Of a stretch of 64,000 bases of DNA, positions 14,204 through 41,896 are shown one piece after another; within the stretch, counting starts at the first letter, position 1; every line of letters starts with the position of its first letter. Position numbers and translations under genes: made by a program. Source of the DNA: Candidatus Omnitrophota bacterium (GTDB taxonomy: Bacteria; Omnitrophota; Gorgyraeia; Zapsychrales; JBAZNR01); NCBI GenBank assembly GCA_041649175.1, contig JBAZNR010000002.1, positions 114,822 to 178,821 of the forward strand, in the 5' to 3' direction. Below the pieces are notes generated by a model that worked only from the letters and a program-made list of their open reading frames with translations, had not been told where the DNA came from and did no database searches.

Positions 14204-14210
14204 ATTTCTA

Positions 14211-15554: not shown

Positions 15555-15570
15555 AAAACTGAGGTGACTT

Positions 15571-16418: not shown

Positions 16419-18245
<1,827 letters not shown>

Positions 18246-25427: not shown

Positions 25428-26141
25428 ATGGACAATCTCCCTTACTCTAAGTCAGAATCCTGGAAAATGTTCGATAAGATCTCCGGCCGATATGATCTGC
25501 TCAATCGGCTTTTATCATTTGGGCTGGATATCGGCTGGCGCAAGAAAATCGTCTCCTTTCTGCCCCCAAAAAACGATTTAACCATTCTTGATCTTGCCAC
25601 CGGAACCGGGGATGTTCTGCTTTATCTTTTTGAGCAGACAAAATCCATCAAAATAGCTTACGGCATTGATCTTTCGGAAAAAATGCTTCTGATTGGCCAA
25701 GAAAAGATAAAGACGCGCAAGTTAGAAGCACAGATCATCTTAAAAAACGGCGACATTAATCAAATCCCGTTTGAAGAAAATTATTTTGACGCGGCAACCA
25801 TTGCGTTCGGAATTCGTAACGTGGTCAATCCAAAACAGGTTTTAAGTGAAATGTTGCGTGTTTTAAAGCCGGGCGGACGGGCGATCATATTAGAATTTGC
25901 TATTCCCGAAAACGCTTTAGTGCGCCCCATTTTTACCTTTTATTTGAGAAAAATTTTGCCCGCCGTCGGCGCGCTTATTTCCGGAAATCTTAAAGCCTAT
26001 AAATATCTTAATCAAACGGTAGAAACGTTTATGTACGGCGAAGAATTTTGCCAAGCGATGGGTGCTTGCGGTTTTCTTAATGTCCGCGCTCACCCCCTGA
26101 CGTTTCAAACGGCGATGATCTATACAGGTGAAAAACCCTAA
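25428..26141 (+). CDS. menG: demethylmenaquinone methyltransferase / UbiE-family C-methyltransferase
   Basis: The 237-aa ORF has the UbiE/MenG N-terminus (MFDKISGRYDLLNRLLSFGLD), the SAM motif LDLATGTGD, and VLKPGGRAIILEF. A men gene cluster lies downstream. Confidence 0.8.
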   Translation: MDNLPYSKSESWKMFDKISGRYDLLNRLLSFGLDIGWRKKIVSFLPPKNDLTILDLATGTGDVLLYLFEQTKSIKIAYGIDLSEKMLLIGQEKIKTRKLEAQIILKNGDINQIPFEENYFDAATIAFGIRNVVNPKQVLSEMLRVLKPGGRAIILEFAIPENALVRPIFTFYLRKILPAVGALISGNLKAYKYLNQTVETFMYGEEFCQAMGACGFLNVRAHPLTFQTAMIYTGEKP

Positions 26142-26144: not shown

Positions 26145-27557
26145 ATGAGTCAGGCGATCGAAGAAAAACAAATTTTAACCTTTAATGAAGCGAAAGAGTT
26201 TTGCGCCGGAGAAATACGACGCCTTGCCGAAGAGCTTCCTTTAGGCAAAAACCGCATCATTCGTTTTGAAGTTAAAATTAATTCTGCCGATCTACCGCAG
26301 TTTTTAGCGTCTAACGCGTCAAATTCCAAAATTTACTGGTCCAGCCGTGAATCGTATTTGCCCGACCGGCAGGGAAGTTTTGAAACCGCGGGCTTAGGAA
26401 TTTCTTACGCGCTTTCCGGAACCAGCATCATTGATTACGATGCCATCTTTCACGAATTGAACCGGTATCTGTCCGGCGATAACAAGAATGTTAAGTTTTT
26501 TGGCGGAATAGCGTTTAACCATACCTCAATCGATAAAAACTGGGAAGAATTTGGAAGTTATCGTTTTGTTTTGCCTCGTTTTGAAGTTCTTAAACGTAAT
26601 CAGCAAACATTTTTTGCCTGTAATGTTTTCGGAAATGTTTTTAGCGCCCGGGAAGCCGAAAGAATTCTTCAAGAATTAGAAAGCCTAAAATGCCCAAATG
26701 AAAAAACATCTTTGATGTTTCCGCGGCTTATTTCCCGTAGCGATGAACCAAAGAAATCCGAATGGATAAAAAAAGTTGATGCGCTCATCAAACGTCTTAA
26801 GAATAAAACTTTAGAAAAAACGGTCTTAGCGCGCCAATCGGTCTTTGAATTTGCCGAAAATCCCGATCCCTGGGCTATTCTTAGAGAACTTAAAAGTATT
26901 TCTCCCGATTGTTTTCATTTTTGTTTTTCACCTATTGATGCGGCCGCTTTTATCGGCGCTTCGCCCGAAAGGCTTTATAAGCGCGACGGAAAAACGGTTC
27001 GAACCGAGGCTATTGCCGGAACGCGTCCGCGCGGGCGATCATCGGAAAGTGATTCAAAATTAAAACAGGAACTTCTTAATTCACCCAAAGAACTTAAAGA
27101 ACATCAATTTGTGGCCGAAGCTATTGAAGATGCGCTAGAGCAGGTGTGCACGCGTTGGGATATGGAAACAAAATCCACTCTTTTGGCGCTTAAAAGCGGG
27201 CAACATCTTTTGACATCATTTAAAGGAAATCTTAAAAAAGATACCGATGATGCCGAAATTTTAAGTTTGCTGCATCCCACACCGGCGGTCGCGGGTTGTC
27301 CGACGGATAAAGCGCTTAAAGTTATCAAGCAATTTGAGCCGTTTAAGCGCGGTTGGTACGCGGCACCGGTCGGTTGGGTTGGTTTTGACAGTTGTGAATT
27401 TGCGGTCGGCATTCGTTCCGGGCTTATTTTAAATAATAAACTTTTCGTTTACGCCGGGGCAGGGATCGTGGAAGATTCAAATCCACAAGATGAGTGGGAT
27501 GAAGTAGAAACAAAGATAGGAAGTTTTATTAAGATATTCGAAAGCAGTAAACTCTAA
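26145..27557 (+). CDS. menF: isochorismate synthase
   Basis: The 470-aa chorismate-binding enzyme has a C-terminal region (SPERLYKRDGKTVRTEAIAGTRPRG ... PTPAVAG ... GWYAAPVGW) typical of MenF/EntC. Its stop overlaps the menD start by 1 nt. Confidence 0.8.
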   Translation: MSQAIEEKQILTFNEAKEFCAGEIRRLAEELPLGKNRIIRFEVKINSADLPQFLASNASNSKIYWSSRESYLPDRQGSFETAGLGISYALSGTSIIDYDAIFHELNRYLSGDNKNVKFFGGIAFNHTSIDKNWEEFGSYRFVLPRFEVLKRNQQTFFACNVFGNVFSAREAERILQELESLKCPNEKTSLMFPRLISRSDEPKKSEWIKKVDALIKRLKNKTLEKTVLARQSVFEFAENPDPWAILRELKSISPDCFHFCFSPIDAAAFIGASPERLYKRDGKTVRTEAIAGTRPRGRSSESDSKLKQELLNSPKELKEHQFVAEAIEDALEQVCTRWDMETKSTLLALKSGQHLLTSFKGNLKKDTDDAEILSLLHPTPAVAGCPTDKALKVIKQFEPFKRGWYAAPVGWVGFDSCEFAVGIRSGLILNNKLFVYAGAGIVEDSNPQDEWDEVETKIGSFIKIFESSKL

Positions 27558-29212
27558 TGACAAATTTAAATTCTATGTGGGCTGAGCTAATTATCGAAGA
27601 ACTCATTCGAAACGGTGTCGATTATTTCTGCATCGCTCCGGGTTCGCGTTCGGCGCCTTTGACCATTGCCGCCGCGCGCAACAAACGTGCTAAAACTTTT
27701 GTTCATTTTGACGAAAGAGGATTGGCGTTTCACGCTTTAGGCTATACAAGTGCGACGCGAAAACCTTGTGTTTTGATCTGTACATCAGGCACGGCTGTGG
27801 GCAATTTTTTTCCCGCGATCATTGAAGCCTCGAAGAAAAAATTGCCCCTGATCGTCCTTACCGCCGATCGTCCGCCGGAACTTCAAAAAACCGGCGCTAA
27901 TCAAACCATCGAACAAAATAATATTTTCGGAAAATACGCCAAATGGACTTTTGAATTTCCTTGTCCGACCCCGGAAATTAAGCCTGAATTTGTCTTGACC
28001 ACAATCGATCAGGCGGTTTTTCAAGCCAAATCCGGAATGAAAGGCGTTGTGCATTTGAATTGCATGTTTCGCGAACCTTTGACGCCGAAAAAGACAGAAA
28101 AGCGTATAGCGTATAGCGTTGAGCGTTTAGGGCCATACACGACATATGAGAAACTAGACGCTATCCGCTACACGCTAGACGCTAAAACGCTCGATGCAAT
28201 TAAATCGATTAAAAACGGTTTAATTGTCGTTGGCAAAATCCCCTTATCCGGTTCTCACGCGCAAGCTGTTTTACATTTAGCTGAAAAACTCCAATTTCCT
28301 ATTTTTCCCGATGTAACGTCCGGTTTGCGCTTAGGGATTGATCATCCCAATCTTATTCATTATTACGACCTTCTCTTGGCTGAAAATAAGCTTAAAAACT
28401 TCAAGCCCGATGGAATTATCCATTTAGGCGGACGGATCACTTCTTCTCGCTATTACGAATTCATCAAATCCTTAAGCCCTAAAACCCTTAAGTCCTATAT
28501 AACTGTTATAAGCCATCCCTTACGAAACGATCCCTTGCACATTGTTACGCATCGCATTCAATCTTGCGTAGGGCAGTTCTGCATGACAGTAAATGAAAAA
28601 ATCCCTTCGCGGCCCCAATCCGCTCAGCTTTTGTCACTTAAGAAGCTTTCAGAAAGCACCAACTCGAAACTGACAAAACTGGAAAACTCGAAAACTTTAA
28701 GCGAAGAAGCCGTTGCTCGTCTTATTTCTCGTCTTATTCTCAAAAATTCCGGCCTATTTTTATCCAGCAGCTTGCCCGTGCGCCACATGGACACTTACGC
28801 CGCTTACGACGGAAATCCGGTCATCGTCGGCTCTAATCGGGGAGCAAGTGGCATTGATGGTACGATTGCCAGCGCGATTGGATTTGCAAAAGGATTAAAT
28901 AACCCGACAACGCTTTTAATCGGCGACTTAGCATTTCTACATGATCTAAACTCTCTAGCAATGCTTAAAGATTTGAAAGTTCCGCTTACGATCGTCGTTC
29001 TTAATAATAACGGCGGGGGAATATTCCATAAACTTCCCGTATCGCAAGTCAAAGACGCGTTTATAAAATATTTTAAAACTCCGCATAACTTGAATTTTAA
29101 GCAAATAGGAAATGTTTTTAATTTAGAGAATTATGCGGTAAAATCGATGAAGGATTTTGCGCGAGCTTATAAAAACAAGGGAAAGAAAATAATAGTTTGC
29201 AATGGATGCTAA
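27557..29212 (+). CDS. menD: 2-succinyl-5-enolpyruvyl-6-hydroxy-3-cyclohexene-1-carboxylate synthase (TPP enzyme)
   Basis: The 551-aa ORF has the MenD-type N-terminus (WAELIIEELIRNGVDYFCIAPGSRSAPL) and the TPP-binding GDLAFLHDLNS...NNNGGGIF. The men operon context supports the call. Confidence 0.85.
   Translation: MTNLNSMWAELIIEELIRNGVDYFCIAPGSRSAPLTIAAARNKRAKTFVHFDERGLAFHALGYTSATRKPCVLICTSGTAVGNFFPAIIEASKKKLPLIVLTADRPPELQKTGANQTIEQNNIFGKYAKWTFEFPCPTPEIKPEFVLTTIDQAVFQAKSGMKGVVHLNCMFREPLTPKKTEKRIAYSVERLGPYTTYEKLDAIRYTLDAKTLDAIKSIKNGLIVVGKIPLSGSHAQAVLHLAEKLQFPIFPDVTSGLRLGIDHPNLIHYYDLLLAENKLKNFKPDGIIHLGGRITSSRYYEFIKSLSPKTLKSYITVISHPLRNDPLHIVTHRIQSCVGQFCMTVNEKIPSRPQSAQLLSLKKLSESTNSKLTKLENSKTLSEEAVARLISRLILKNSGLFLSSSLPVRHMDTYAAYDGNPVIVGSNRGASGIDGTIASAIGFAKGLNNPTTLLIGDLAFLHDLNSLAMLKDLKVPLTIVVLNNNGGGIFHKLPVSQVKDAFIKYFKTPHNLNFKQIGNVFNLENYAVKSMKDFARAYKNKGKKIIVCNGC
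28101..28193. repeat. in-frame cluster of short direct and inverted TAGCGT/ACGCT-type repeats inside menD
   Basis: AGCGTATAGCGTATAGCGTTGAGCGTTTAG ... CTAGACGCTATCCGCTACACGCTAGACGCTAAAACGCTC. The two halves are approximately reverse-complementary and built from (T/C)AGCGT units. The segment encodes RIAYSVERLGPYTTYEKLDAIRYTLDAKTLDAI. Confidence 0.4.
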
Positions 29213-29489
29213 ACCAATACGCTATTCAATTCTTGAAATCGTTGCTATCTTTGCCGCAGGAATTCTGCTTTGCGTTGCAATTCCTAAAGGCTTCTTGAAT
29301 GATAAGCCGTTTCTTCTGTGGGCTTCGCTAACGTTATCGCTGTATCTTCTATTAAAAATCCTCCACCGAAAAAATAAAAACATTTTAAAAATGCAACCGG
29401 GATTTAAAATTGTTGCAAATATATTATTGATTGTATGGGCGCTATGCGGAGCGATGTTCTTTTTTCTCACAGTATTTTGTAATTTTTAA
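29202..29489 (+). CDS. hypothetical small membrane protein
   Basis: The 95-aa ORF has 2-3 TM helices and is AT-rich. It overlaps the menD 3' end by 11 nt. I recognise no motifs. Confidence 0.3.
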   Translation: MDAKPIRYSILEIVAIFAAGILLCVAIPKGFLNDKPFLLWASLTLSLYLLLKILHRKNKNILKMQPGFKIVANILLIVWALCGAMFFFLTVFCNF

Positions 29490-29545
29490 AACAAACAGCG
29501 ACTGGCACGTTTTTAGAAGATCAAAAAAAGGAATTATTGTTATCA

Positions 29546-30187
29546 ATGGATAAGAACAACCCAACAACGAAAAAGCGGGATTTTGATAAAGAAGCGGCCA
29601 CCTGGGACACCGCGCAAAAGATCACTTTAGCCAAAAATATCGCCGGGGCTATTTTAAGCCAAGTCAAATTGACAAAAGAAATGGATGTTATGGATTTTGG
29701 CTGCGGCACCGGGCTTTTGGCTTTCCATATTCAGCCCCTGGTCCGCTCGGTCGTCGGTGTCGACAGCTCAAAGGGAATGTTGGATGCTTTTAATACCAAG
29801 ATCCGCCAGAAGGATATCAAAAACGCCAAAACTTCTTTTGTGGATTTAAGCGCGGGAGATGTTTTAAACGGACGCTATCAGGCTATTATTAGCGGTATGA
29901 CGCTTCATCATATTGAAGATGTTCCGGCGCTTTTGAAACGTTTCTTTGAAATTTTAACCAAAGGCGGACAACTCGCGCTGGTAGACTTAGATGAAGAGGG
30001 CGGCCTTTTTCATGAAAACAAAGACGGCGTTTTTCACAACGGGTTTAACCGGGAAAAATTGAAAGGCTTGTTAACGGATGCGGGCTTTGCCGATATCCGC
30101 GACACAACGGCCGCCCAAATGACCAAGTCCGCCGCTAACGGCGCGCTTAGAACATTTTCGATTTTTTTAATAACGGGGAGAAAATGA
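29546..30187 (+). CDS. class I SAM-dependent methyltransferase
   Basis: It has the Rossmann SAM motif MDFGCGTGL and the downstream acidic/hydrophobic pattern (LVDLDEEGG). The start is taken at MDKNNPTT. Confidence 0.7.
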   Translation: MDKNNPTTKKRDFDKEAATWDTAQKITLAKNIAGAILSQVKLTKEMDVMDFGCGTGLLAFHIQPLVRSVVGVDSSKGMLDAFNTKIRQKDIKNAKTSFVDLSAGDVLNGRYQAIISGMTLHHIEDVPALLKRFFEILTKGGQLALVDLDEEGGLFHENKDGVFHNGFNREKLKGLLTDAGFADIRDTTAAQMTKSAANGALRTFSIFLITGRK

Positions 30188-30247
30188 AGGTGAGTGGCGC
30201 GTATTTAAAAAGGTACGTGTCCCGGGAAATTTGTAAAGGAGATATAA

Positions 30248-31102
30248 ATGGCGCCCAAAAGAAAAGAAATTACTAATCCAATTCCACAGCCTCCTTCAGT
30301 AAACCCCGAAAAAGGAATTGAATTGATAAAAAAGCAAATAGATCGCGGCAAGGATTTGCTTGCTAAAAGACCACTAAGAAAAGATGACTATCTTTCATGG
30401 GAAAATATTACACAGGCATGTCTCGAGAAATCGTTTGGTTTAAATTCACCAAATGTAAATAAGGTATTAGATATTGGCAAATACGGTGCTTTTCCTATGG
30501 GGGCAAGCGAAGATTATTGGGAAAATAGTAGGTCTGAGGATCTTTCGTCGCAAATCTCAATGTTAATAAGTCAAATTGAATTGCTTGAAATGGAGATATC
30601 GCTTTCTTCGGATACTAAGAGTGGACCAGTCATTCCTAGTCATTTGCCAGCAATTTCACGGAAAATATTCCTTGTCCATGGACATGATGATGGTATCAAA
30701 GAAGCGACAGCAAGATTTTTAGAGAAGTTGGGTTTAGCGCCAATAATCTTGCATGAGAAGCCAAATCAAGGAAGAACAATCATCGAGAAAATTTCTGATT
30801 ATTCCGATGTAGGCTTTGCAGTTGTGCTGTTAACAGGCGATGATGTTGGCAGAATAAATGATGCAAAATGTGAGAACCTTCTTCCGCGTGCTCGCCAAAA
30901 TGTAGTCCTTGAACTCGGGTATTTTTTAGGAAGAATTGGTCGGCAACGAGTATGTGCTCTCTATCAAAAAGGAGTTGAAATTCCATCAGATTATTCCGGC
31001 GTTCTGTTTATTCCTTTAGATGAGAGTGGTGCCTGGCGTGTGCAGTTGGCTAAGGAAATCAAAGCAACAGGTATTGACTTAGACATGAACAGCGCCATTT
31101 GA
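30248..31102 (+). CDS. two-domain protein: N-terminal domain of unknown family + C-terminal TIR-like nucleotide-binding domain (COG4271/PF10137 type)
   Basis: Residues ~138-275 carry three motif blocks: KIFLVHGHDDGIKEATARFLEKLGLAPIILHE, SDVGFAVVLLTGDDVG, and RQNVVLELGYFLGRIGRQRVCALY. These match the blocks I recall for the 'predicted nucleotide-binding protein containing TIR-like domain' family (FDFAIFVFSPDD / RDNVIFELGLFIGRLG). The N-terminal ~135 aa is helical or coiled-coil (ISMLISQIELLEMEIS), has no TM segment and belongs to no family I recognise. The gene is AT-rich relative to its flanks. Confidence 0.6.
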   Translation: MAPKRKEITNPIPQPPSVNPEKGIELIKKQIDRGKDLLAKRPLRKDDYLSWENITQACLEKSFGLNSPNVNKVLDIGKYGAFPMGASEDYWENSRSEDLSSQISMLISQIELLEMEISLSSDTKSGPVIPSHLPAISRKIFLVHGHDDGIKEATARFLEKLGLAPIILHEKPNQGRTIIEKISDYSDVGFAVVLLTGDDVGRINDAKCENLLPRARQNVVLELGYFLGRIGRQRVCALYQKGVEIPSDYSGVLFIPLDESGAWRVQLAKEIKATGIDLDMNSAI

Positions 31103-31171
31103 AATACTTGCAGAAAACAACTGACGCTATTTTTAAATTTAATTGAATTAAAAAATTTCGATGGAGAAGAA

Positions 31172-32785
31172 ATGAAAAAAATAACTGAATTAAAATTAGG
31201 GTTTAGCGATGCGGAAAATTACAAACGCAAGGAAAATAAAGAGTTGTTTAATGCTATTTTTGTGAAAAATGTTTTTCTCGAGCAGCTAATGAGCCCTAGT
31301 TCATTTTTCTTGATTGGTGAAAAAGGTACGGGAAAAACCGCATATGCCGTCTACTTATCTAATAGTGTTTATCAAGGGAACAAGTCAGAGTTAAAATATA
31401 TCAGAGAAACTGATTATCAAAAATTTGTCAACCTAAAACAAAAGCACCACCTTTTGCTATCGGATTATGAAAGCATATGGAAAGTTATTATCTTGTTACT
31501 ACTAGCAAAGAGTATTAATGTCGAAGAATTAGAAGGCAACCCTTTTAGTAAGAACAAGAAATTTAAGATTATATTAGAAGCAATTGATGAATATTATAAT
31601 CACGCATTCTCACCAGAGATATTAGCAGCTTTGAATTTGATTGAAAATTCAAAGATAGCGGCAGAACTGGTGTCAAAGCATTTAAAGGCAGGAGGCGAGC
31701 AGACTGCCCAAACTTCATTTCAAGAATCACGTTTTCAAGTGAACTTACTTTACTTGCAGCGTGAATTCGAAAGAGCCCTTAGCGACATAAAAACAAAAAC
31801 ACATCATATACTCTTCATCGATGGAATAGATATAAGGCCTGGATCAATTCCTTACGATGAATATCTGGAATGCATCAAGGGCTTAGGCAATGCTATTTGG
31901 AACCTGAACAATGATTTTTTTTCTCAATTAAAATACTCCAATGGTAGGTTTCGTGCAGTATTATTAATACGGCCAGACATATTTAATTCGATCGGTTTGC
32001 AAAATTCTACGAACAAGATATTAGATAATTCAGTTTTTCTTGATTGGAAAACCACATACCCAGATTACCGCCATTCACAAATCTTCGGACTTATTGATAG
32101 ATTATTAAATGCTCAGCAAGGGAAAAAGTTCGAACATGGAGAGGCTTGGGATTTTTATTTCCCTTGGAAATCGCCTACCACAAGTCCAAGCAGAGGTCAT
32201 GACCCATCGTTTTACAAATTACTACGTCTCTCTTATTCAAGACCGCGAGACTTAGTTACAATATTGAAAATTCTTCAACAGGTTGCAATTGAAGATAAAA
32301 CCCAAGAAAATACGTTTTTCTCACTAGAGAACTTTGACAGTGACAAATTTCAAAATCGATATTCTGAATATCTTATGGGAGGAATAAAAGATCAGCTATC
32401 GTTTTACTATACAGACAAAGATTACGAATTCTTTTTAAAATTCTTTAATCATTTTGAAGGTAAAGGTAGATTTGATTACAATGAATATCTATCGGCTTAC
32501 AAGAAATTTACTGAGGACATATTAAATTACCATACAGGAATTCCAGAATTTGTTGATAATCCGGATAAATTCTTACAATTTTTGTATGACACCAATATTC
32601 TTTGCTACATTGAGAATTCAAGATCAAGCAACCCATCTTTTAGCTGGTGCTATCGAGACAGAAGCCCGGCCAATATATCTCCAAAGGTAAAGAGTAACGT
32701 AAGATATGAAATACATTATGGCCTGCTGAAGTCTCTTAATTTAGGATTTGGAAGCAAAAAAAGAAAGAAATATGAAAAAGGGTGA
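31172..32785 (+). CDS. P-loop NTPase of unassigned family (Walker A GEKGTGKT, Walker B ILFIDGID, downstream SRPRD motif)
   Basis: The 537-aa ORF has Walker A at residues 49-56 (nt 31316..31339) and Walker B hhhhDGxD at residues 213-220 (nt ~31808..31831). The two are separated by about 155 aa, indicating an inserted helical region. LLIRPDIF (263-270) is a possible sensor strand, and LSYSRPRDLV (353-362) is a possible Arg sensor. The C-terminal ~170 aa is unassigned. The gene is very AT-rich and sits 70 nt downstream of the TIR-like gene on the same strand. Confidence 0.65.
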   Translation: MKKITELKLGFSDAENYKRKENKELFNAIFVKNVFLEQLMSPSSFFLIGEKGTGKTAYAVYLSNSVYQGNKSELKYIRETDYQKFVNLKQKHHLLLSDYESIWKVIILLLLAKSINVEELEGNPFSKNKKFKIILEAIDEYYNHAFSPEILAALNLIENSKIAAELVSKHLKAGGEQTAQTSFQESRFQVNLLYLQREFERALSDIKTKTHHILFIDGIDIRPGSIPYDEYLECIKGLGNAIWNLNNDFFSQLKYSNGRFRAVLLIRPDIFNSIGLQNSTNKILDNSVFLDWKTTYPDYRHSQIFGLIDRLLNAQQGKKFEHGEAWDFYFPWKSPTTSPSRGHDPSFYKLLRLSYSRPRDLVTILKILQQVAIEDKTQENTFFSLENFDSDKFQNRYSEYLMGGIKDQLSFYYTDKDYEFFLKFFNHFEGKGRFDYNEYLSAYKKFTEDILNYHTGIPEFVDNPDKFLQFLYDTNILCYIENSRSSNPSFSWCYRDRSPANISPKVKSNVRYEIHYGLLKSLNLGFGSKKRKKYEKG

Positions 32786-32859
32786 AAAGGGGGACAGCGC
32801 CCGTTAATTTAATAAATAAAATTCTCGCAAATCGTTATTGACGGAACGGACATAGTTAA

Positions 32860-33465
32860 ATGCAAATATTTCTAAAATCAAAAATTATTTTTATTGCGGC
32901 CTTTTCTCTGGCTTTTTACGGCTGTGTCGGAATCGGAGCACCTATATTAGACCCTTGGACAAATTCTCAAAATGTTGATGGGTTGCTTGCACATAACCGG
33001 CCGCTTCCTGCTGAACTTCTTATTGAAGCTACGATGGAGAATTGCAAAAGGAAAAATGATGAGCTCGGTCTGGCTCTCGCCTATAAAATGTTTGCAAATT
33101 TTTTGGAATCATCAACTGTAAAAAATTGGGAATACCATTATCGAAGAGACGGATTTATAATCGATAAAACAGTGACTTTCGATAACCGCCTGGATAAAGC
33201 CCGCGAATACTGGTATAAATCGTTGCATCTTTATCAAAAAAATAATGCGCATGCCGAAGAGTCCAATATATATGTCAATATTGCCACCTCCGACTTTTTT
33301 ATTAAGAATGATCCTCAAACTGCCTGTCAAAATCTCGACTTAAGCCTTGAGGCTCATGTAAAATTTAGGAAAGATCATCCTGACAAGCCCATTATAATGG
33401 ACAAGAGATTTAAAGATTTTCCTGATTACATCAAAGCCGCAAAAGAACAATTTGAGTGCAAATAA
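32860..33465 (+). CDS. hypothetical secreted protein / possible lipoprotein
   Basis: The 201-aa ORF has an N-terminal signal peptide with a Cys at the end of the h-region (AFSLAFYGCVG, a non-canonical lipobox). It is AT-rich. I recognise no motifs. Confidence 0.4.
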   Translation: MQIFLKSKIIFIAAFSLAFYGCVGIGAPILDPWTNSQNVDGLLAHNRPLPAELLIEATMENCKRKNDELGLALAYKMFANFLESSTVKNWEYHYRRDGFIIDKTVTFDNRLDKAREYWYKSLHLYQKNNAHAEESNIYVNIATSDFFIKNDPQTACQNLDLSLEAHVKFRKDHPDKPIIMDKRFKDFPDYIKAAKEQFECK

Positions 33466-33542
33466 AACAAAACGGGCACAGCCCGTCTCGTCCGCTAAAT
33501 TGCGAAAGGGTCAGTCCTCGATAAGAAAATGAGGCGAATAAA

Positions 33543-33878
33543 ATGAAAAAATTTTTTCTTATATTCGGCTGGTTTGAGATCATCCTTGGCGGTTGTTTAG
33601 GCGTGTTTGCGTTATCCATCAGCCTCTTTGATCTTTTCACGATGCGCGCTGAAGGAGTTTACATCCTTGTTGGAATCTTGTTTTTATTACCGCTTTCTTT
33701 ATTGCTTTTGGTTTCCGGTTTTATGCTCAAAAAGGGAAGCATTATCGGAAAAGCGCTGTCGATCGCGTCGGTTTTGATCATTCTTTTTCTTGTTTTAAGC
33801 TATTCTGCTTTTCTGCAGGATAGGAAAGATCATAGGGAAAAAATAAACACGCGTATTGAAGAGCAGAAGAATAAATAA
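33543..33878 (+). CDS. hypothetical small membrane protein
   Basis: The 111-aa ORF has 3 TM helices and a charged C-terminal tail (DRKDHREKINTRIEEQKNK). Confidence 0.4.
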   Translation: MKKFFLIFGWFEIILGGCLGVFALSISLFDLFTMRAEGVYILVGILFLLPLSLLLLVSGFMLKKGSIIGKALSIASVLIILFLVLSYSAFLQDRKDHREKINTRIEEQKNK

Positions 33879-33882
33879 CCAA

Positions 33883-34022
33883 GATGCAATAACCTATGAG
33901 TAATAATTAGGGAACTACGGTTGATAGGATGAGTTGTGCGTTGTGAGTCGAGTTGTGAGTTTTGGGCGTGGGTAAACCCAAAAACACACAACACAAAACC
34001 TGACACAAAACTCATAACGCAT
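33883..34022. repeat. ~140-bp imperfect palindrome with strand-skewed GT-rich / CA-rich halves
   Basis: The left half is GATGCAATAACCTATGAGT...GAGTTGTGCGTTGTGAGTCGAGTTGTGAGTTTTGGGCGTGGGT. The right half is ACCCAAAAACACACAACACAAAACCTGACACAAAACTCATAACGCATC. They are approximately reverse-complementary, with a 7-bp core stem TTTTGGG/CCCAAAA around the loop CGTGGGTAAA. Confidence 0.45.
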
Positions 34023-34041
34023 CCCAATAACCAATAAAAAT

Positions 34042-35007
34042 ATGTTAAAAACTACCATCGATTATCTTTTTTATAGTGTTTTAAAGCTGCCGCTCGACTC
34101 ACCCTCGGTTGAAATGGCGAACTTTTTTATCTACGATTCCATCAAGATCCTTTTGCTTTTATTTTCCATGATCTGGGTGATCGGGATCTTGCGCACCTTT
34201 GTTTCGCAAGAGAAGATCAAAGGCTGGCTGGGCCGCAGTAAAGGCGTGGGGAATTTATTCGCCTCAATTTTTGGCGCTATTACACCGTTTTGTTCGTGCT
34301 CGTCCATTCCGCTTTTTATCAGCTTTTTGAAAGCCGGTGTTCCTTTGGGCGTGACATTTTCCTTTTTGATCACCTCACCTCTGGTCAATGAATATCTGGT
34401 CGTTTTGATGATCGGGTTTTTCGGTTGGAAAATAGCCATGCTTTACGCGTTTTTCGGGATTTTTATCGGCGTTATGGCGGGAATGGTTTTAGGAATGATG
34501 AAACTAGAAAAAAATCTGGCGGCCGATATTTTTAACGCGCAGTACGCCGAAACGCCCGCAGCAGTTGCGACATACAAAAACTTCAAAGCGCGAGTTTTGT
34601 TTGGTTCAGGCGAGGCTGTCACGATCGTGAAACAACTTTGGGGCTGGGTTTTAGTGGGTGTCGCCATGGGCGCGTGGATCCACAATTACATTCCGCAAGA
34701 AATGGTCAATACCGTGGTGAGCAAAGCCGGGATCTTAGGCGTTCCGGCGGCGGTTGCTTTAGGCGTTCCGATGTACGGCGGCTGCGCGGCCATTGTTCCG
34801 GTGGCGGTTGTTTTATTCCAAAAGGGTTTTCCGTTAGGGACGGCGCTTTCCTTTATGATGGCGGTTTCCGCCCTTAGTTTGCCGGAAGCCATTATGCTTC
34901 GCCGGGTGATGAATTTGCGATTAGTAATCATCTTTTTTGCCGTGACAACCTTAGGTATTATCATTACGGGATATTTGTTCAACTTTTTGCAGGGGATCAT
35001 TGTTTAA
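34042..35007 (+). CDS. DUF318/ArsP-family predicted permease
   Basis: The 321-aa polytopic ORF has the family-typical [10 protein letters not shown] motif, with a second half repeating the topology. The true start may be the internal Met (~34114). Confidence 0.6.
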
Positions 35008-35842
35008 CAAATTAAAGAAAGAGCAAAATATGAATTGGAAGCCATCAGGAAAATTTACAGATATTAAATACGTTAAATCCGAGGGAATAGCGAAAATCAC
35101 TATCAATCGCCCGCAAGTGCGAAATGCGTTTCGGCCCTTAACGGTTCAGGAAATTTCTCAAGCCTTAAATGACGCGCGCGATGATGAAAGAATCGGCGTT
35201 ATCATTTTAGCGGGTGAAGGAAAGCTGGCGTTTTGTTCGGGCGGCGATCAAAGCGTGCGAGGAAATGCCGGATATAAAGATTCTAAAGGCGTTCATCGGC
35301 TTAATGTTTTAGACCTTCAGCGTCAGATCCGCAGCTGTCCAAAACCGGTGATCGCGATGGTGGCAGGATACGCTGTTGGCGGCGGGCAAATACTACAAAT
35401 GCTCTGCGACTTGACCATTGCGGCCGACAATGCGATCTTTGGCCAAACCGGCCCTAAAGTGGGCTCATTTGACGGTGGTTATGGCGCCAGCTACATGGCG
35501 CGCATCGTCGGGCAAAAGAAAGCGCGCGAGATATGGTTTTTGTGCCGACAATATAACGCGAAACAAGCTTTGGAGATGGGTCTGGTGAATACAGTTGTTC
35601 CTTTAAAGAATTTGGAAACGGAAACAGTGAAATGGTGCAAAGAGATTTTAGCCAATTCACCGATGGCCATTCGCTGTTTAAAAGCCGCGCTTAACGCAGA
35701 TTGCGATGGACAAGCGGGCTTGCAAGAACTTGCCGGAAACGCCACGATGTTATTTTATATGAGCGAAGAAGGGCAAGAAGGCAGAAACGCGTTTTTAGAA
35801 AAGAGAAAGCCGAATTTTAGTAAGTTTCCGAAAAGACCATAG
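35000..35842 (+). CDS. menB: 1,4-dihydroxy-2-naphthoyl-CoA synthase (crotonase fold)
   Basis: It has the MenB signatures FCSGGDQ, the GYAVGGG oxyanion-hole region, and the C-terminal [17 protein letters not shown]. The start is probably the internal Met at 35030. Confidence 0.9.
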
Positions 35843-35983: not shown

Positions 35984-36868
35984 ATGAATCTTTCTGAATT
36001 AAAAAATTGGCTTTTAGCGATTCGCCCCAAAACTCTTCCGGCGGCGATAGCGCCGGTTATTATCGGTACGGCGATGGCGGCTTCCGACCATCGTTTTCAT
36101 TTCTTTTCTGCCTTGGCCGCTCTTTTGGGTGCGCTTCTTATTCAAATTTTAGCCAATCTTACAAACGATTATTTTGATTTTAAAAAAGGCGCGGATACCA
36201 ACGAACGCATTGGCCCAACGCGGGTGATGCAGGCGGGATTGATCAACTCTAAACAGATGAAGATCGCCATTGCCATTGTTGTTGGATTGATCGGTCTTGT
36301 GACGGCATTTTTATTCTTTCGCGGCGGAATTCCCATCGCGATCATTGGAGTTCTCTCTATCATTTGCGCGTTTCTTTATACCGCCGGGCCTTTTTCTTTA
36401 GGATATTTAGGTTTAGGAGAAGTTTTTGTTTTTATTTTCTTTGGGCTGGTCGCGGTTACCGGAACATATTTTGTTCAAGCACTCACTATAAAACCTATTG
36501 TTTTGATCGCGGGAATTGCGCCGGGGCTTTTATCCGTCGCTATCTTGACAGTTAATAATTTGCGCGATCTTGACCAAGACCGAAAAGCAGGTAAAAAGAC
36601 TTTAGCTGTTCGTTTTGGGCGTGCCTTTGCCATTATGGAATACTTTTATTCAATTGTGATCGCCGCGTTCGTTCCGCTCATTTTATTTTTTATCACTGTT
36701 AGCCATTCGTACGCGTTGACCTCAATGATCATCTTACTTTTAGCCGCTCCGGCCATGCGAACCGTTTTTACCAAAACCGACGGGCCTGTGCTTAATGAAA
36801 CCTTGGCTTACACAGGGCAACTTCTTTTTATCTACAGCCTGCTTTTTTCTTTAGGATGGATCTTGTGA
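35984..36868 (+). CDS. menA: 1,4-dihydroxy-2-naphthoate polyprenyltransferase (UbiA family)
   Basis: The 294-aa UbiA-fold membrane protein has NDYFDFKKGAD (the first Asp-rich motif) and a second motif NNLRDLDQDRKAGKKTL. Confidence 0.85.
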   Translation: MNLSELKNWLLAIRPKTLPAAIAPVIIGTAMAASDHRFHFFSALAALLGALLIQILANLTNDYFDFKKGADTNERIGPTRVMQAGLINSKQMKIAIAIVVGLIGLVTAFLFFRGGIPIAIIGVLSIICAFLYTAGPFSLGYLGLGEVFVFIFFGLVAVTGTYFVQALTIKPIVLIAGIAPGLLSVAILTVNNLRDLDQDRKAGKKTLAVRFGRAFAIMEYFYSIVIAAFVPLILFFITVSHSYALTSMIILLLAAPAMRTVFTKTDGPVLNETLAYTGQLLFIYSLLFSLGWIL

Positions 36869-37830
36869 ACATAAAACAGATCGAAATCCTCAAATACAAA
36901 CTTCCGCTTAAAATTCCGCTTATTTTCAAGAAGCATAGACTACGATTTCGTGAAGGATTTGTGATTGAAATTGCCGACTTAGAAGGGAATTTTGGGTTGG
37001 GAGAAATTTCTCCTTTGCCGGGATTTAGCCGGGAAAGTTTATCGATGGTTAAAAGGGAATTGTTTTTACTTAAAAAGCGGCTCCTGGGCGAAGAGCTTTC
37101 AAAAGATTTCTTGAAACTTGAAGGACGTTTTTTTAAATGGCTTGATCGCTACAAGCTTTCCGCTTCCGTGCGCTGCGGTGTGGAAATGGCCGTTTTAGAC
37201 CTTTTGGAAAATAAAAAGAAGAACGCGGTTTCGGCGACAGTTCCGGTTGCCGGGCTTTTAACGGGAACAAAAGAGGAAGTTTGCCGCCACACAAAAGAAT
37301 TGTTGGCGCACAAGTTCAAGGTTTTTAAACTGAAAATTGGACGCGGAACGCTCAAAGAAGAGATCTTAAAAACGAAAACAGTTTTGTGGCTCTTGGCGGG
37401 CAGGGCGAGCTTGCGCCTTGATTGCAATCGTCAATTCAGTTTTAAAGAAGCGGTCGAATTCGCTTCGCATTTTAAAGCCAAGGATCTTGAATATATCGAA
37501 GAGCCATTTGCGGATTTTAAACACATTCCCGAATTCTTTAAGAAAACCGGGATCGGAGTTGCTCTAGATGAAACGCTTCTTGAGATCGATCCGGCTGATC
37601 TAAAAAAGTTTTCCGGTGTTAAAGCACTGGTTTTAAAACCGACCATTCTCGGCGGATTTGAGCGCTGTATGCAATTCATTCGCGTGGCGAAAAAGCTAGG
37701 AATTGAATCTGTTATTAGCTCAAGCTTTGAAACAACGATAGGCTTAATGGCTTTGGCGCGTTTTGCCGCGAAAATTGACAAAAAAATCGCCCATGGCCTT
37801 GATACAGAAAAATGGTTCAAAGAACAATGA
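36856..37830 (+). CDS. menC: o-succinylbenzoate synthase (enolase superfamily)
   Basis: The 324-aa ORF has the MenC-like N-terminal capping region (FREGFVIEIADLEGNFGLGEISPLPGF) and a KxK region (FKLKIGRG). It overlaps the menA end and the menE start. Confidence 0.75.
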   Translation: MDLVNIKQIEILKYKLPLKIPLIFKKHRLRFREGFVIEIADLEGNFGLGEISPLPGFSRESLSMVKRELFLLKKRLLGEELSKDFLKLEGRFFKWLDRYKLSASVRCGVEMAVLDLLENKKKNAVSATVPVAGLLTGTKEEVCRHTKELLAHKFKVFKLKIGRGTLKEEILKTKTVLWLLAGRASLRLDCNRQFSFKEAVEFASHFKAKDLEYIEEPFADFKHIPEFFKKTGIGVALDETLLEIDPADLKKFSGVKALVLKPTILGGFERCMQFIRVAKKLGIESVISSSFETTIGLMALARFAAKIDKKIAHGLDTEKWFKEQ

Positions 37831-39323
37831 AAACGATTCCGTGCCCCTGGAGTGCTGCCGCAAAGAAATTTCCTCATCAGCCGGCGTTTATTCTTAAAAG
37901 CCGGCATGTTTCTTATCAGCAATTCGATCAGATCTGCGCGAAAACATTATTGACGCTGAAGGAATCCGGAATAAAGCCAAATGAACACATTGCCATTGTT
38001 TCACCCAATTCTTTTGAATATGTTGTTTTATTAGTAGCGCTCTGGCGGTTAAAAGCGGTCGCGGTTCCCATAAACACGCGTTTACCGGAAAAGGGAATTG
38101 CGGCGGCGCTTAAAAAGATAAGTGGAAGAAAGATTTTTCTCGCGCAAAAGGCAAATTTGCCTTTTGCGCAGCAGTTCCTGATCAGAGATTTTATTTATCC
38201 GCCGTGTTGTTGTGAATGCGAAGCAAAAGCGCAAAAGATTTCTTACGATCAAGACGCGACCATTGTTTTTACGTCAGGAAGCTCCGGTGAACCGAAAGCT
38301 GTTTTACATTCATTCGCAAATCATTTTTATAATGCTCTAGGGTCCAATAAAAACATTTCTCTTAAAATCGGCGACAGCTGGCTTTTATCCTTACCGCTTT
38401 ATCACGTCGGCGGCTTAGGAATTTTATTTCGCGCAGCTCTTAGCGGCGCGGCTGTCATTGTTCCCGAAGAAAATGAAACCCTGGAAAGATCGATCAAGCA
38501 TTATAAACCAACCCATCTTTCCTTGGTGGCGACACAACTTTATCGTCTTTTGCTCCGACGTCCCGATAAAAATGTTGGGAGTCGGAGTTCCGACCTTCTT
38601 GATAATGCTTCGCAAAGCGTCGGAAAAAATATCATCAGGGATCTTCAAAGGATGAAAGCTGTTTTAATTGGCGGAAGCGCGATCCCTGAAAACCTTATCA
38701 AAGGATCTTTCCGTCAAAAAATTCCCATTTATTTAACCTATGGATTGACTGAAATGGCGTCGCAAGTCGCGACAACAAAAAAGGGCTCAATAGATTCAGC
38801 AAAACCGCTTCAATTTCGAAAACTTAAAATCGCGAAAGACGGCGAGATATTAGTCAAAGGCGAGACATTGTTCAGGGGATATGTTTCCGGAGCTAAGGTC
38901 GCCCGCGCATTGACGCGAGACGGATGGTTTCCAACCGGCGATCTGGGACGATTTGACAGATCCGGCGCTTTGCATATTTTGGGACGCAAAGATAATATGT
39001 TCATTTCCGGCGGGGAAAATATTCAGCCTGAAGAGATCGAAAGGTCACTCTTGAAGCTTCCCGGAATTTCGCAAACCGTAGTCGTTCCGGTAAAAAATAA
39101 TGAGTTTGGGTTTCGCCCGGTTGCCTTTATCAAAACAACGCATCAAGCAAAGATCAATTCTGAAAGAATAAAAACAGTTTTGCGAAAAACCCTTCCGGGA
39201 TTTAAGATCCCCGACGCCTTTTATCCCTGGCCCAAAGATCTAAAAGAAAATTTAAAAATGAAACGGCTAAGTTTCCTGCAGATGGTGGGAAGCTGTAAAG
39301 TTACTTTAAAGAAAACTTTTTAA
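37812..39323 (+). CDS. menE: o-succinylbenzoate--CoA ligase (adenylate-forming enzyme)
   Basis: It has the AMP-binding motifs TSGSSGEPKAV and YGLTE, and C-terminal GWFPTGDLG...GRKDNMFISGGENI. Confidence 0.75.
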   Translation: MVQRTMKTIPCPWSAAAKKFPHQPAFILKSRHVSYQQFDQICAKTLLTLKESGIKPNEHIAIVSPNSFEYVVLLVALWRLKAVAVPINTRLPEKGIAAALKKISGRKIFLAQKANLPFAQQFLIRDFIYPPCCCECEAKAQKISYDQDATIVFTSGSSGEPKAVLHSFANHFYNALGSNKNISLKIGDSWLLSLPLYHVGGLGILFRAALSGAAVIVPEENETLERSIKHYKPTHLSLVATQLYRLLLRRPDKNVGSRSSDLLDNASQSVGKNIIRDLQRMKAVLIGGSAIPENLIKGSFRQKIPIYLTYGLTEMASQVATTKKGSIDSAKPLQFRKLKIAKDGEILVKGETLFRGYVSGAKVARALTRDGWFPTGDLGRFDRSGALHILGRKDNMFISGGENIQPEEIERSLLKLPGISQTVVVPVKNNEFGFRPVAFIKTTHQAKINSERIKTVLRKTLPGFKIPDAFYPWPKDLKENLKMKRLSFLQMVGSCKVTLKKTF

Positions 39324-41678: not shown

Positions 41679-41692
41679 GCTTTTTAAGTAAG

Positions 41693-41740
41693 AGCAATAA
41701 AAAATCCCTAATATTTATTTATTAGGGATTTTTTATTGCT
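41693..41740. terminator. rho-independent terminator: perfect 21-bp inverted repeat with 6-nt loop
   Basis: AGCAATAAAAAATCCCTAATA - TTTATT - TATTAGGGATTTTTTATTGCT. It lies directly after the sod stop. The arms have U-runs on both strands, so it could terminate in either direction. Confidence 0.65.
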
Positions 41741-41826
41741 CTGTAAGCCTTTTGAGTACTTATTAGCTTGATTTTCTCGACGGAAATATTTTTCACAAAA
41801 TAAATGTAAATTTATCGTAAATTTGC

Positions 41827-41854
41827 TTGACTTTGCTGGCGCAGTAAATATACT
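41827..41854 (+). promoter_or_regulatory. candidate nrdA promoter (TTGACT-16-TATACT)
   Basis: TTGACT lies at 41827..41832 and TATACT at 41849..41854. A second TTGACA at 41872..41877 overlaps the palindrome listed below. Confidence 0.4.
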
Positions 41855-41880
41855 AACTGTTGATAGAGCAATTGACAAAA

Positions 41881-41896
41881 ACACTACATATTGTGT
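41881..41896. promoter_or_regulatory. NrdR-box-like 16-bp palindrome upstream of nrdA
   Basis: ACACTACATATTGTGT fits the NrdR box pattern acaCwAtATaTwGtgt at 15 of 16 positions. It sits between the second -35 element and the nrdA start. Confidence 0.45.

Follow-up and report, generated by a model that had tools for sequence, protein, structure and literature searches.

A compositionally composite accessory block with two defence-type genes at the menD-menB junction of an Omnitrophota genome

Gene organization of the locus

The material was a stretch of 64,000 nucleotides from an uncultured Candidatus Omnitrophota bacterium (assembly GCA_041649175.1, contig JBAZNR010000002.1, positions 114,822-178,821 of the forward strand), called here the window. 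ORF and domain calls gave, on a single strand, the order menG-menF-menD, seven further ORFs and menB-menA-menC-menE. The proximal flank is composed of menG (25428-26141, + strand as all genes below; UbiE/MenG model NF001244, 239 bits for a cut-off of 216), menF (26145-27557, recognized with Pfam and NCBIfam) and menD (27557-29212; TIGR00173, 424 bits for a cut-off of 244). The distal flank contains menB, ending at 35842 and starting at 35000 (longest ORF) or at 35030 (alternative start taken from gene calls; NF005637, 513 bits for a cut-off of 380), followed by menA (35984-36868), menC (36856-37830) and menE (37812-39323). MenD, MenB and MenG exceed the NCBIfam equivalog cut-offs; MenB displays 82% identity with relatives, in which the order menG-menF-menD is also kept. 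The original prediction of an islet splitting the men operon between menD and menB agrees with this locus in gene content and in coordinates.

The block (29202-35007, about 5.8 kb) comprises seven mutually unrelated accessory ORFs, all co-oriented. The small hydrophobic orf95 (29202-29489) starts 11 nt inside the end of menD; it contains three hydrophobic stretches, judged by eye, and is annotated by NCBI as a hypothetical protein. It is followed by a class I SAM-dependent methyltransferase of the small-molecule type, MT216 (29537-30187; Methyltransf_23/25/11/12), whose match to the PADLOC model mad2 is confined to the generic methyltransferase domain. Next come the TIR protein TIR284 (30248-31102) and the P-loop ATPase FunZ537 (31172-32785), described below, then orf201 (32860-33465), a secreted or lipoprotein-like ORF with an N-terminal hydrophobic segment ending in AFYGC, and orf111 (33543-33878), a small multi-pass membrane ORF. 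No family match was found for orf95, orf201 and orf111 in Pfam, PADLOC, NCBIfam and PHROG. The last gene, perm321 (34042-35007), encodes an ArsP_1 permease (PF03773/DUF318, 8.6e-64), with matches to SaoE and SO_0444 that are well under cut-off, and overlaps the longest menB ORF by 8 nt. All the gene kinds listed beforehand (small membrane ORF, methyltransferase, TIR-like protein, NTPase, secreted protein or lipoprotein, membrane protein and DUF318 permease) were recovered.

An imperfect hairpin of about 110 nt (33919-34031, not assigned to a strand) is localized in the spacer between orf111 and perm321. Its left arm is GAGTTGTG-like and its right arm CACAAC-like, and its folding energy is -41.4 kcal/mol (z -2.6) on the + strand and -48.3 kcal/mol (z -4.9) on the - strand. 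No further copy was detected in the window or in 87 loci, and no Rfam family matches it. The palindromic element expected at the distal edge of the block therefore exists, but it sits inside the block, at the distal end of the AT-rich core, and not at the outer edge. As predicted, no tRNA was found in the whole window and no integrase or transposase domain in the seven proteins (Pfam, PADLOC, NCBIfam, PHROG). The proposed search for direct repeats, which also covered inverted repeats, gave nothing above chance at the outer borders or at the inner compositional borders.

Base composition of the block

The AT-richness is statistically extreme. The flanks have a GC content of 0.42-0.50, which drops to 0.32-0.39 at 30.8-34 kb. 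When the 64 kb are ranked by tetranucleotide deviation in 2-kb windows, the top five all fall within 30.0-34.0 kb, with a z value up to 5.07, the maximum of the window, and codon usage deviates in the same region. At the gene level, low GC values are displayed by orf95 (0.354), FunZ537 (0.340, z -2.6; the lowest of the block), orf201 (0.373) and orf111 (0.381). The GC3 is 0.305 (z -2.6) for TIR284 and 0.318 for FunZ537; the GC3 z values of the deviant genes range from -2.3 to -2.6, and their codon-usage distances from 0.38 to 0.50 for a median of 0.17. In contrast, MT216 (GC 0.456) and perm321 (GC 0.465) are not distinguishable from the host. The block is thus compositionally composite: the claim that its genes are more AT-rich than the flanks is correct for orf95 and the core 30248-33878 (TIR284, FunZ537, orf201 and orf111), but not for the methyltransferase and the permease.

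The AT-rich part shows signs of horizontal acquisition. A foreign origin is indicated by the deviations in tetranucleotides, GC3 and codon usage, by the location of FunZ relatives in prophages and mobile elements, by the existence of PHROG families for both TIR284 and FunZ537, and by the 60-86% identity of FunZ homologues across phyla (Desulfonema, Aminicenantes, Bacteroidia), to be compared with 63% for the best MenD relative. The low GC cannot be used to date the insertion, since AT-richness is a trait of the FunZ gene family: in 98% of 52 loci the FunZ gene is AT-rich whatever the GC of the host, and phage P2 fun(Z) has a GC content of 0.328 against 0.536 in its flanks.

The two defence-type proteins

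The TIR-like protein that had been announced is supported by matches to PF10137 (3e-36), to the PADLOC model PDC-S35 (1.8e-77, 258.7 bits, near full length) and to a TIR-STING fold. TIR284 displays an N-terminal four-helix domain (residues ~20-121) and a C-terminal TIR domain of the Cap12/PycTIR type (~139-258), and matches phrog_16442 (1.4e-54). It aligns with the Cap12 structures 9lmq and 7un8 through the NVVFEFG motif, and the corresponding Glu222 (in NVVLELG) is invariant in 45 homologues. The AF2 model (pLDDT 85) has TIR-STING as top Foldseek match (1.3e-6), and no structural match to the four-helix domain was obtained with Foldseek. TIR284 was rejected as a Cap12 equivalog, the models scoring 39 and 33 bits for a cut-off of 450. 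By analogy with Cap12 and PycTIR, TIR284 probably consumes NAD+. Its homologues number in the hundreds, measure about 280 residues with the same two-domain layout and, where examined, are singletons in varied neighbourhoods. No experimental test of PDC-S35 was found in the literature, and this family is a candidate only.

The predicted NTPase is a homologue of the abortive-infection protein of phage P2, Fun(Z). FunZ537 matches the Fun(Z)/Sll1717 family of P-loop (AAA+-like) ATPases with 221.9 bits (NF047389, cut-off 75) and phrog_13260 at 1.8e-123, and shares 52.6% identity with P2 Fun(Z) over 99% of its length. Both the Walker A motif (GEKGTGKT) and the Walker B motif (LFIDGID) are conserved. 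From the AF2 model (pLDDT 78), whose closest folds are Orc4, Orc5, Cdc6 and SSO1545, all weak, FunZ537 is predicted to have an ORC/Cdc6-like AAA+ core and a helical C-terminal domain; no nuclease or other effector domain was recognizable in the model. Its relatives are found in prophages, type I restriction-modification operons, an ICE and toxin-antitoxin clusters. In E. coli, P2 Fun(Z) acts by abortive infection against T5-like, T-even and other phages (PMC8594841), and the cloned gene alone blocks T5 (sequence record note; PMC8594841). By sequence similarity, FunZ537 is assigned to a known anti-phage family and TIR284 to a candidate one.

The menD-menB junction in related genomes

Of the GTDB representatives closest in MenD (50-54% identity), seven have menD abutting menB (from a 4-nt overlap to a 66-nt gap). 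Four relatives carry unrelated cargo of 1.5-6.1 kb at the junction (a response regulator and a LysM amidase; a response regulator and an EF-G paralogue; three Peptidase_S74 proteins; hypothetical proteins), and in seven others menB is absent within 6.6-10 kb of menD. On a truncated contig from a fifth relative, menD is closely followed by a Y1 transposase gene. In the nearest metagenomic relatives (MenD 56-63%), the wider synteny is preserved but the junction holds other genes, and in other phyla this position is occupied by menH (menD-menH-menB). The closest relative compared is only 63% identical in MenD, and these comparisons, at 50-63% MenD identity, are made across species or genera and not within a species pangenome. 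The expectation that the men genes are contiguous in relatives holds for only part of them: the slot at the junction is variable in general or prone to breakpoints.

No homologues of the seven block genes were detected in more than 80 men loci, about 20 of them from the same lineage. The only cargo common to relatives is one response regulator (loci L003 and L006), absent here. No PADLOC match was found in the relatives' cargo, and the slot is therefore not a dedicated defence hotspot.

Interpretation of the block

We consider it likely that the block is composite, non-self-mobile accessory cargo, inserted in a variable slot at the Omnitrophota menD-menB junction and carrying two independent single-gene anti-phage modules. 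This agrees with the proposed defence-islet style of insertion as opposed to a classical mobile element, two defence-type genes being present and mobility genes, tRNAs and border repeats lacking. The slot is the position of menH in other phyla and is empty in several relatives, whose menD and menB show translational coupling. Acquisition may have proceeded by recombination with the conserved men genes as anchors. The block would be expressed by read-through with the men operon, because the genes all share one orientation and no strong terminator was detected. TIR284 would degrade NAD+ upon triggering of its N-terminal helical domain, and both proteins may confer an anti-phage phenotype on the Omnitrophota host.

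A functional tie to the men operon, as a lineage-specific extension of it, is unlikely for the block as a whole or for the methyltransferase and permease alone; such a tie could for example consist of an additional methylation of the quinone and a transporter. The host-like composition of both genes, the translational coupling of perm321 to menB, the common orientation and the weak similarity of MT216 to UbiG, UbiE and MenG-type methyltransferases (1e-10 to 1e-11) are consistent with such a link. However, the NCBIfam matches of MT216 (CpaM, UbiG, UbiE, BioC) reach only about 40-52 bits for cut-offs of 103-216, MT216 apparently has no NCBI protein record, neither gene recurs in the men loci examined, and the best representative homologue of perm321 (61% identity) lies in an unrelated housekeeping neighbourhood.

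Somewhat less probable still is a single co-acquired defence system composed of TIR284 and FunZ537, to which orf201 and orf111 might also belong, where the AAA+ ATPase would sense infection and activate the TIR NADase as effector. The two genes are adjacent, co-oriented, separated by 69 nt and similarly low in GC3, and the FunZ model lacks a recognizable effector domain. At one FunZ locus (L089), a gene 98 nt upstream encodes a DUF4917 protein, which we take to be of a SIR2-like family, another NADase-type domain. Against this, no TIR284 homologue was detected in 100 FunZ loci (tblastn, 1e-4), whose neighbours are overwhelmingly unrelated singletons, and none of four TIR284 homologues (55-70% identity) has a FunZ neighbour. 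P2 fun(Z) is moreover active alone, and in PADLOC PDC-S35 is a candidate system of one gene. TIR284 and FunZ537 are separate single-gene modules and not a conserved pair.

We regard as very improbable that the arrangement is ancestral to the lineage, the relatives with adjacent menD and menB having lost the genes. The nearest relatives also carry genes between menD and menB and insertion scars are not visible here, but the relatives' cargo is unrelated to the block, no other DNA of the 64 kb deviates as much in composition as the core, the FunZ and TIR families are patchy over phyla, prophages and mobile elements with identities above those of housekeeping genes, and the outgroup phyla display menD-menH-menB. 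Finally, the source is a metagenome assembly and the composition changes abruptly, but a chimeric contig with artefactual junctions is hardly credible, because a separately assembled Logan contig spans the menD-orf95-methyltransferase-TIR-FunZ junction with 100% identity over 11,174 bases and the genes are also on a 388-kb NCBI MAG contig, and ORFs overlap at both borders. The distal junction is absent from the short Logan contig; its only coverage comes from a 659-kb ENA contig and from the NCBI record.

Comparison with known systems

P2 Fun(Z) resembles FunZ537 in its full-length homology, its similar size (a CDS of 1,587 nt, about 528 residues, for 537 residues) and its Walker motifs, and both are strongly AT-rich stand-alone genes with unrelated neighbours. 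P2 fun(Z) occupies a moron position between tail genes of an enterobacterial prophage, whereas FunZ537 lies in a biosynthetic operon of an uncultured Omnitrophota. TIR284 shares with CBASS Cap12 (TIR-STING) and Pycsar PycTIR the TIR subfamily, the conserved glutamate of NVVxExG and the best structural match, but contains no STING or cyclic-nucleotide-binding sensor domain, and no CD-NTase or cyclase gene was found nearby with Pfam and PADLOC. With the single-gene PDC-S35 of PADLOC, it shares the near-full-length HMM match, the two-domain layout and the occurrence as a singleton.

As a whole, the block would represent a known kind of feature, an ordinary example of a variable genomic slot with horizontally acquired defence genes. 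It differs from known hotspots by its position inside a co-transcribed-looking biosynthetic operon and not beside a tRNA or tmRNA, and by the cargo of the relatives, which is not defence-related. Mobile genes are absent from 29% of the cDHS1 sites and 47% of the cDHS2 sites of P. aeruginosa (PMC10250203). Like these sites and the defence-island hotspots of E. coli, the menD-menB slot combines atypical composition, often with no detectable mobility gene, with conserved flanks, cargo that varies among relatives and defence genes (PMC10250203, PMC10121019).

Gene organization between menD and menB

The genes menG (25428-26141), menF (26145-27557) and menD (27557-29212) are separated from menB (35000-35842, with the start at 35030 in the public gene call), menA (35984-36868), menC (36856-37830) and menE (37812-39323) by a block of seven ORFs (29202-35007), all these genes being carried by the plus strand. 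MenG, MenD and MenB all exceed their NCBIfam equivalog cut-offs. The block begins with orf95 (29202-29489), which encodes a hydrophobic protein and overlaps the menD stop by 11 nt. It continues with MT216, a class I SAM methyltransferase (29537-30187), TIR284, a TIR protein of 284 aa with the domain PF10137 (30248-31102), FunZ537, a P-loop ATPase of 537 aa (31172-32785), orf201, which is lipoprotein-like (32860-33465), orf111, a small membrane ORF (33543-33878), and perm321, an ArsP_1/DUF318 permease (34042-35007). The stop of perm321 overlaps with the start of the longest menB ORF. ORF layout and domain scans agree with the original prediction in its gene list and coordinates. Its claim that integrase, transposase and tRNA are lacking was borne out: no integrase, recombinase or transposase domain was detected in any of the seven proteins with Pfam, NCBIfam, PADLOC and PHROGs, and no tRNA anywhere in the 64-kb window. 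Promoter-like and terminator-like motifs occur at background density (29 versus 28.8 expected and 22 versus 19.3, respectively), so that transcription units are not inferable from these scans.

The 659-kb metagenomic contig ENA ERZ27247363 contains the window. A Logan contig assembled independently of it (run SRR8542065) matches at 100% identity along 11,174 bases, from menG to the start of FunZ537. The block genes are also present on the NCBI MAG contig. Taken together, the Logan match and the MAG contig make a chimeric assembly unlikely at the proximal junction; the distal junction is supported by the long ENA contig and the NCBI record. The NCBI protein accessions pass from MFA5060106 (orf95) to MFA5060107 (TIR284) and skip the methyltransferase at 29537-30187. 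PGAP may thus have flagged MT216 as a pseudogene, though the ORF and its methyltransferase domain look intact.

Downstream of the block, a perfect 28-nt palindrome, GCGCAAAAGGCAAATTTGCCTTTTGCGC, is localized within menE (38142-38169). On the minus strand, between a SOD gene and a ribonucleotide reductase gene, an ORF of 93 aa (41691-41989) without any Pfam match is the most AT-rich of the window (GC 0.298, z -3.7), and its 3' end overlaps a perfect 23-nt inverted repeat (41691-41742).

Composition and borders of the block

The GC content is 0.32-0.39 at about 30.8-34 kb versus 0.42-0.50 on both sides. The five most deviant 2-kb tetranucleotide windows of the 64 kb all fall within 30.0-34.0 kb; the peak (z = 5.07) is at 31001-33000 and all windows elsewhere have z values of at most 1.2, so that the core at 30248-33878 clearly deviates from its flanks. 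At the level of single genes, low values were obtained for orf95 (GC 0.354), TIR284 (GC3 0.305, z -2.6), FunZ537 (GC 0.340, z -2.6), orf201 (GC 0.373) and orf111 (GC 0.381), and the synonymous-codon distance reaches 0.38-0.50 in the three longest AT-rich genes versus a window median of 0.17. MT216 (GC 0.456, codon distance 0.18) and perm321 (GC 0.465, codon distance 0.17) are not separable from the host genes. The block is therefore compositionally composite, and its description as AT-rich as a whole, made in the original prediction, applies to orf95 and the core and not to the methyltransferase and the permease. Like the atypical cargo of hotspots, orf95 and the core combine an unusual composition with kin in distant taxa or mobile elements; MT216 and perm321 do not.

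No short direct repeats above chance flank the block, either by repeat finding or by local alignment against shuffled sequences. Direct and inverted repeats did not exceed the shuffles, in both orientations, at the outer borders (menD/orf95 compared with permease/menB) or at the inner compositional borders, and the repeat families detected at the borders are short and weak. MenD is 15-40 residues shorter at its C-terminus than most relatives (29150-29212), ending in ...KKIIVCNGC* versus the consensus ...STIIEVxTxRxENxxxHxxLQ..., which may reflect an insertion breakpoint. The same endpoint is found in two relatives, so that the short C-terminus is no proof of a breakpoint, and a search near menB for a displaced 3' tail of menD gave only noise. 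The breakpoint is placeable only at the very end of menD.

An imperfect hairpin of about 110 nt (33919-34031) occupies the spacer preceding the permease gene, one arm being made of GAGTTGTG-like and the other of CACAAC-like units. Its folding energy is -41 kcal/mol on the plus strand (z -2.6) and -48 kcal/mol on the minus strand (z -4.9). Since no other copy is present in the window or in 87 comparison loci, its reading as a REP or MITE is not supported. Rfam, searched over 24-41 kb with a permissive E-value, gave no match. The hairpin may be a terminator, an insulator, a site for a regulator or the end of an element. The palindromic element that had been placed at the distal edge of the insertion thus exists, but it marks the distal end of the AT-rich core and not the outer edge of the block.

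The menD-menB junction in related genomes

The closest MenD among 5.8 billion proteins is 63% identical, so that no near-isogenic comparison is available; the named MenD relatives carry the labels Candidatus Omnitrophota or Omnitrophica. A GTDB scan with a single MenD sequence found none, and a profile built from a MenD alignment recovered 80 species representatives, in which the men genes were located by tblastn. The three nearest metagenomic relatives (MenD 56-63%) keep the wider gene order, with radical-SAM, POR, TPP enzyme, thioredoxin-reductase-like and menG-F-D genes upstream and menB-A-C-E, thioesterase, aquaporin, AhpC and SOD genes downstream, but differ between menD and menB. At this junction, loci L003/L004 contain a 177-aa ORF, a response regulator and a LysM amidase, and locus L006 a response regulator, a CheD-like ORF and an EF-G paralogue. 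The response regulator is the only cargo common to two near relatives, and their cargo has nothing in common with that of the window. In L005, a truncated contig, an IS200/IS605-type Y1 transposase gene (12600-13031) lies just downstream of menD and is the sole mobility gene found at the junction among the genomes examined.

The closest GTDB group (MenD 50-54%) is labelled Omnitrophota, 'uncultured Planctomycetales' and, in one case, Acidobacteria. In seven GTDB relatives menB comes straight after menD (ORF spacing between a 4-nt overlap and a 66-nt gap), and in two the junction holds other genes, over 1.5 kb in one and 6.1 kb in the other. In seven more, menB is absent within the 6.6-10 kb available downstream, where genes for PIF1 helicases, a type II secretion ATPase and others come after menD. 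The men genes, expected from the original prediction to be contiguous in relatives, are thus adjacent at menD-menB in seven of the closest relatives overall, separated by unrelated cargo in four and split in seven. In locus L009, one of the two with other cargo, the junction (11763-17584) holds three tandem paralogous proteins of about 645 aa, each with a C-terminal Peptidase_S74 domain (endosialidase chaperone, tail-fibre-like).

In other phyla, the menD-menB gap of about 0.9-1.0 kb encodes menH, the model TIGR03695 being above cut-off in 5 of 5 loci. No MenH homologue was detected in the window, nor in 17 Omnitrophota-group loci up to 10 kb from menD. The gene is missing at its canonical position in the window and in L008, L011, L012, L015 and L043, in contrast to L026, L035, L036, L058 and L068. 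None of the seven block genes has a homologue in any of these men loci, and the block gene order is not conserved in the 80 GTDB representatives and the nearest metagenomic loci. A junction that is empty and translationally coupled in part of the lineage, and elsewhere in it broken or filled with varying cargo, bears the signature of an accessory slot: the position of menH in other phyla is here a variable accessory site.

Ten cargo proteins from the slots of four relatives gave no match with PADLOC, and the slot is therefore not a dedicated defence hotspot. The idea of a defence islet, put forward in the original prediction, is retained for the genes FunZ537 and TIR284 (PDC-S35 type) and the lack of mobility features, and not for the slot itself.

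FunZ537, a Fun(Z)-type ATPase

FunZ537 is 52.6% identical to the annotated fun(Z) CDS of phage P2 over residues 1-530 of 537 (99%; tblastn, E 5e-179), and scores 221.9 bits versus a cut-off of 75 with NCBIfam NF047389 ('P-loop ATPase, Sll1717 family'; profile positions 1-454 of 454). The Walker A motif GEKGTGKT (residues 49-56; pattern GxxGxGKT) and the Walker B motif LFIDGIDIRP (residues 214-223; pattern hhhhDG[IV]D) show little or no variation among 40 homologues. Homology, Walker motifs and profile score all point to a full-length member of the Fun(Z)/Sll1717 family, and NCBI names the protein 'funZ protein'. The P2 record bears the note 'cloned gene blocks growth of T5; nonessential; lysogenic conversion'. 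In the BASEL study, P2 Fun/Z aborted infection by all tested Markadamsvirinae (T5-like), Tevenvirinae and Vequintavirinae and by a Felixounavirus, through a mechanism that is not known; within this family, abortive phage resistance has been established for P2 Fun/Z alone, in E. coli (PMC8594841). A literature search under the name FunZ gave nothing useful. The AlphaFold model (mean pLDDT 78) has no recognisable effector domain; Foldseek matched it weakly (E about 1e-3, TM 0.3-0.5) to ORC/Cdc6-type AAA+ ATPases and to the archaeal SSO1545, and a sequence search of the PDB with the FunZ profile found none.

Homologues 60-86% identical to FunZ537 occur in Desulfonema, Aminicenantes, Bacteroidia and Syntrophobacteraceae. 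These values are far above those reached by the MenD of this genome with any sequence from other lineages, an argument for horizontal spread. The neighbourhoods of the homologues, of mobile or defence type, point in the same direction: an ICE-like region with AbiEii, PIN, integrase, TrwC and TraG; IS elements with an integrase and a DUF4917 gene upstream; MazE-PIN and HEPN-MNT pairs; prophage CI repressors and P2-type tail-fibre assembly genes. In L125, L128 and L153, the FunZ gene is again located inside an operon, here one for type I restriction-modification, with hsdS (Methylase_S) on one side and hsdR (HSDR_N/SWI2_SNF2) on the other. The DUF4917 gene, a single case, belongs to Desulfonema ishimotonii (L089, 6881-9599; FunZ 65%) and is located 98 nt upstream of the FunZ gene on the same strand. 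DUF4917, a SIR2-like family, hints at an occasional NADase-type partner for FunZ.

Across 52 FunZ loci flanked by 4 kb or more, the GC content of the gene falls short of that of its surroundings by a mean of 14.9 points (-0.149), the difference being negative in 98% of the cases. FunZ genes have a GC content of about 0.26-0.37 even with flanks at 0.5-0.59, and the deficit of about 15 points extends across hosts from 31% to 70% GC; for P2 fun(Z), the values are 0.328 versus 0.536. Low GC is thus a persistent trait of the family and not proof of a recent insertion. It marks FunZ as a circulating element and cautions against equating low GC with recent transfer; the trait may itself need explaining.

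TIR284, a PDC-S35-type protein

TIR284 matches the PADLOC PDC-S35 HMM PDLC05005 (1.8e-77; residues 24-282, profile positions 7-261 of 264), PF10137 (124.5 bits versus a gathering score of 24.7) and phrog_16442. These profile matches place it among the candidate PDC-S35/PF10137 TIR proteins. In its C-terminal domain, Glu222 (RQNVVLELG) is invariant in 45 homologues and aligns with the motif NVVFEFG of the Cap12 chains 9lmq and 7un8; the glutamate of NVVxExG is presumably the catalytic residue, as known from Cap12/SfSTING. The top PDB match of the predicted fold is TIR-STING (E 1.3e-6). By analogy with its TIR subfamily, we infer that TIR284, once triggered, would consume NAD+. The 120 N-terminal residues form a confidently predicted helical domain of four helices, without any match in Pfam or the PDB. 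Full-length homologues of about 280 aa are numerous; they occur singly in unrelated gene contexts, in two cases next to toxin-antitoxin genes. No paper mentioning PDC-S35 was found in the literature search.

The adjacency of TIR284 and FunZ537 and their similar GC3 leave a low probability for a joint arrival or for cooperation as a two-component system, where the AAA+ protein FunZ537, itself effector-less, would sense infection and switch on the TIR NADase. We hold this to be very improbable, since a TIR284 homologue is present in 0 of 100 FunZ loci (flanks up to 6-8 kb), the immediate FunZ neighbours being 115 singletons and a few small clusters, since FunZ is missing next to all four TIR284 homologues examined, and since P2 fun(Z) functions when cloned alone. 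If true, such a pairing would be the first mechanistic handle on killing by Fun(Z)-family proteins. These comparisons suggest that TIR284 and FunZ537 probably do not form one system, and that the block probably holds two defence-family genes independent of each other.

The methyltransferase MT216 and the permease perm321

MT216 displays sub-threshold similarity to the small-molecule methyltransferases CpaM, UbiG, UbiE and BioC (NCBIfam). Its PADLOC match 'mad2' was discarded, as it covers a generic SAM-methyltransferase domain (profile positions 276-401 of 492). The permease is a typical member of PF03773, and its closest representative homologue (61%) is found among housekeeping genes without link to menaquinone. 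Both genes may have arrived earlier, may come from a donor of similar GC content or may serve a function connected with the operon. The last option is disfavoured, since neither gene occurs at any other men locus.

Origin of the block and comparison with known systems

The slot between menD and menB is variable, its cargo is unique to this genome, its core is compositionally foreign and the block carries no mobility features. The block would have entered by recombination, with the conserved men genes as anchors, a process proposed for hotspots flanked by core genes, many of them without mobile genes (PMC10250203, PMC10121019). Its genes would be expressed together with the men operon, TIR284 would deplete NAD+ and FunZ537 would act by abortive infection of the Fun(Z) type. 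In a further reading, milder than that of a two-component system, the loss of menH would have left a permissive site in an essential operon, now a cargo slot expressed by operon read-through.

Accessory and defence cargo can thus settle inside a biosynthetic operon, co-oriented and without a mobility gene, at the position of menH in other phyla. The 'funZ protein' of the MAG is homologous over its full length to a phage-exclusion protein with experimentally shown activity, and its gene adjoins a candidate TIR defence gene; a literature search found no study on the defence systems of Omnitrophota. The chief value of these results lies in annotation and housekeeping, and the current understanding is not overturned.

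Multi-gene readings of TIR284 as CBASS, Pycsar or a Thoeris-like system were rejected. The Cap12/PycTIR effectors of CBASS possess a cyclic-nucleotide sensor domain (STING, SAVED or CNB) that is absent from TIR284, and the Cap12 equivalog models reach only 39.3 and 33.3 bits versus a cut-off of 450. CBASS and Pycsar also require an adjacent CD-NTase or pyrimidine cyclase gene, and none is present among the seven block proteins or the flanking men genes. A classical integrative mobile element (prophage, ICE, IS/transposon or tRNA-targeting island) was likewise rejected for want of integrase, recombinase, transposase, border repeats and tRNA. Dedicated defence hotspots differ from the menD-menB slot by their recurrent defence cargo. 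The slot shares with accessory and defence hotspots conserved flanks around differing or absent cargo, and 29202-35007 represents a further instance of an already known type of feature, the accessory slot with defence genes.
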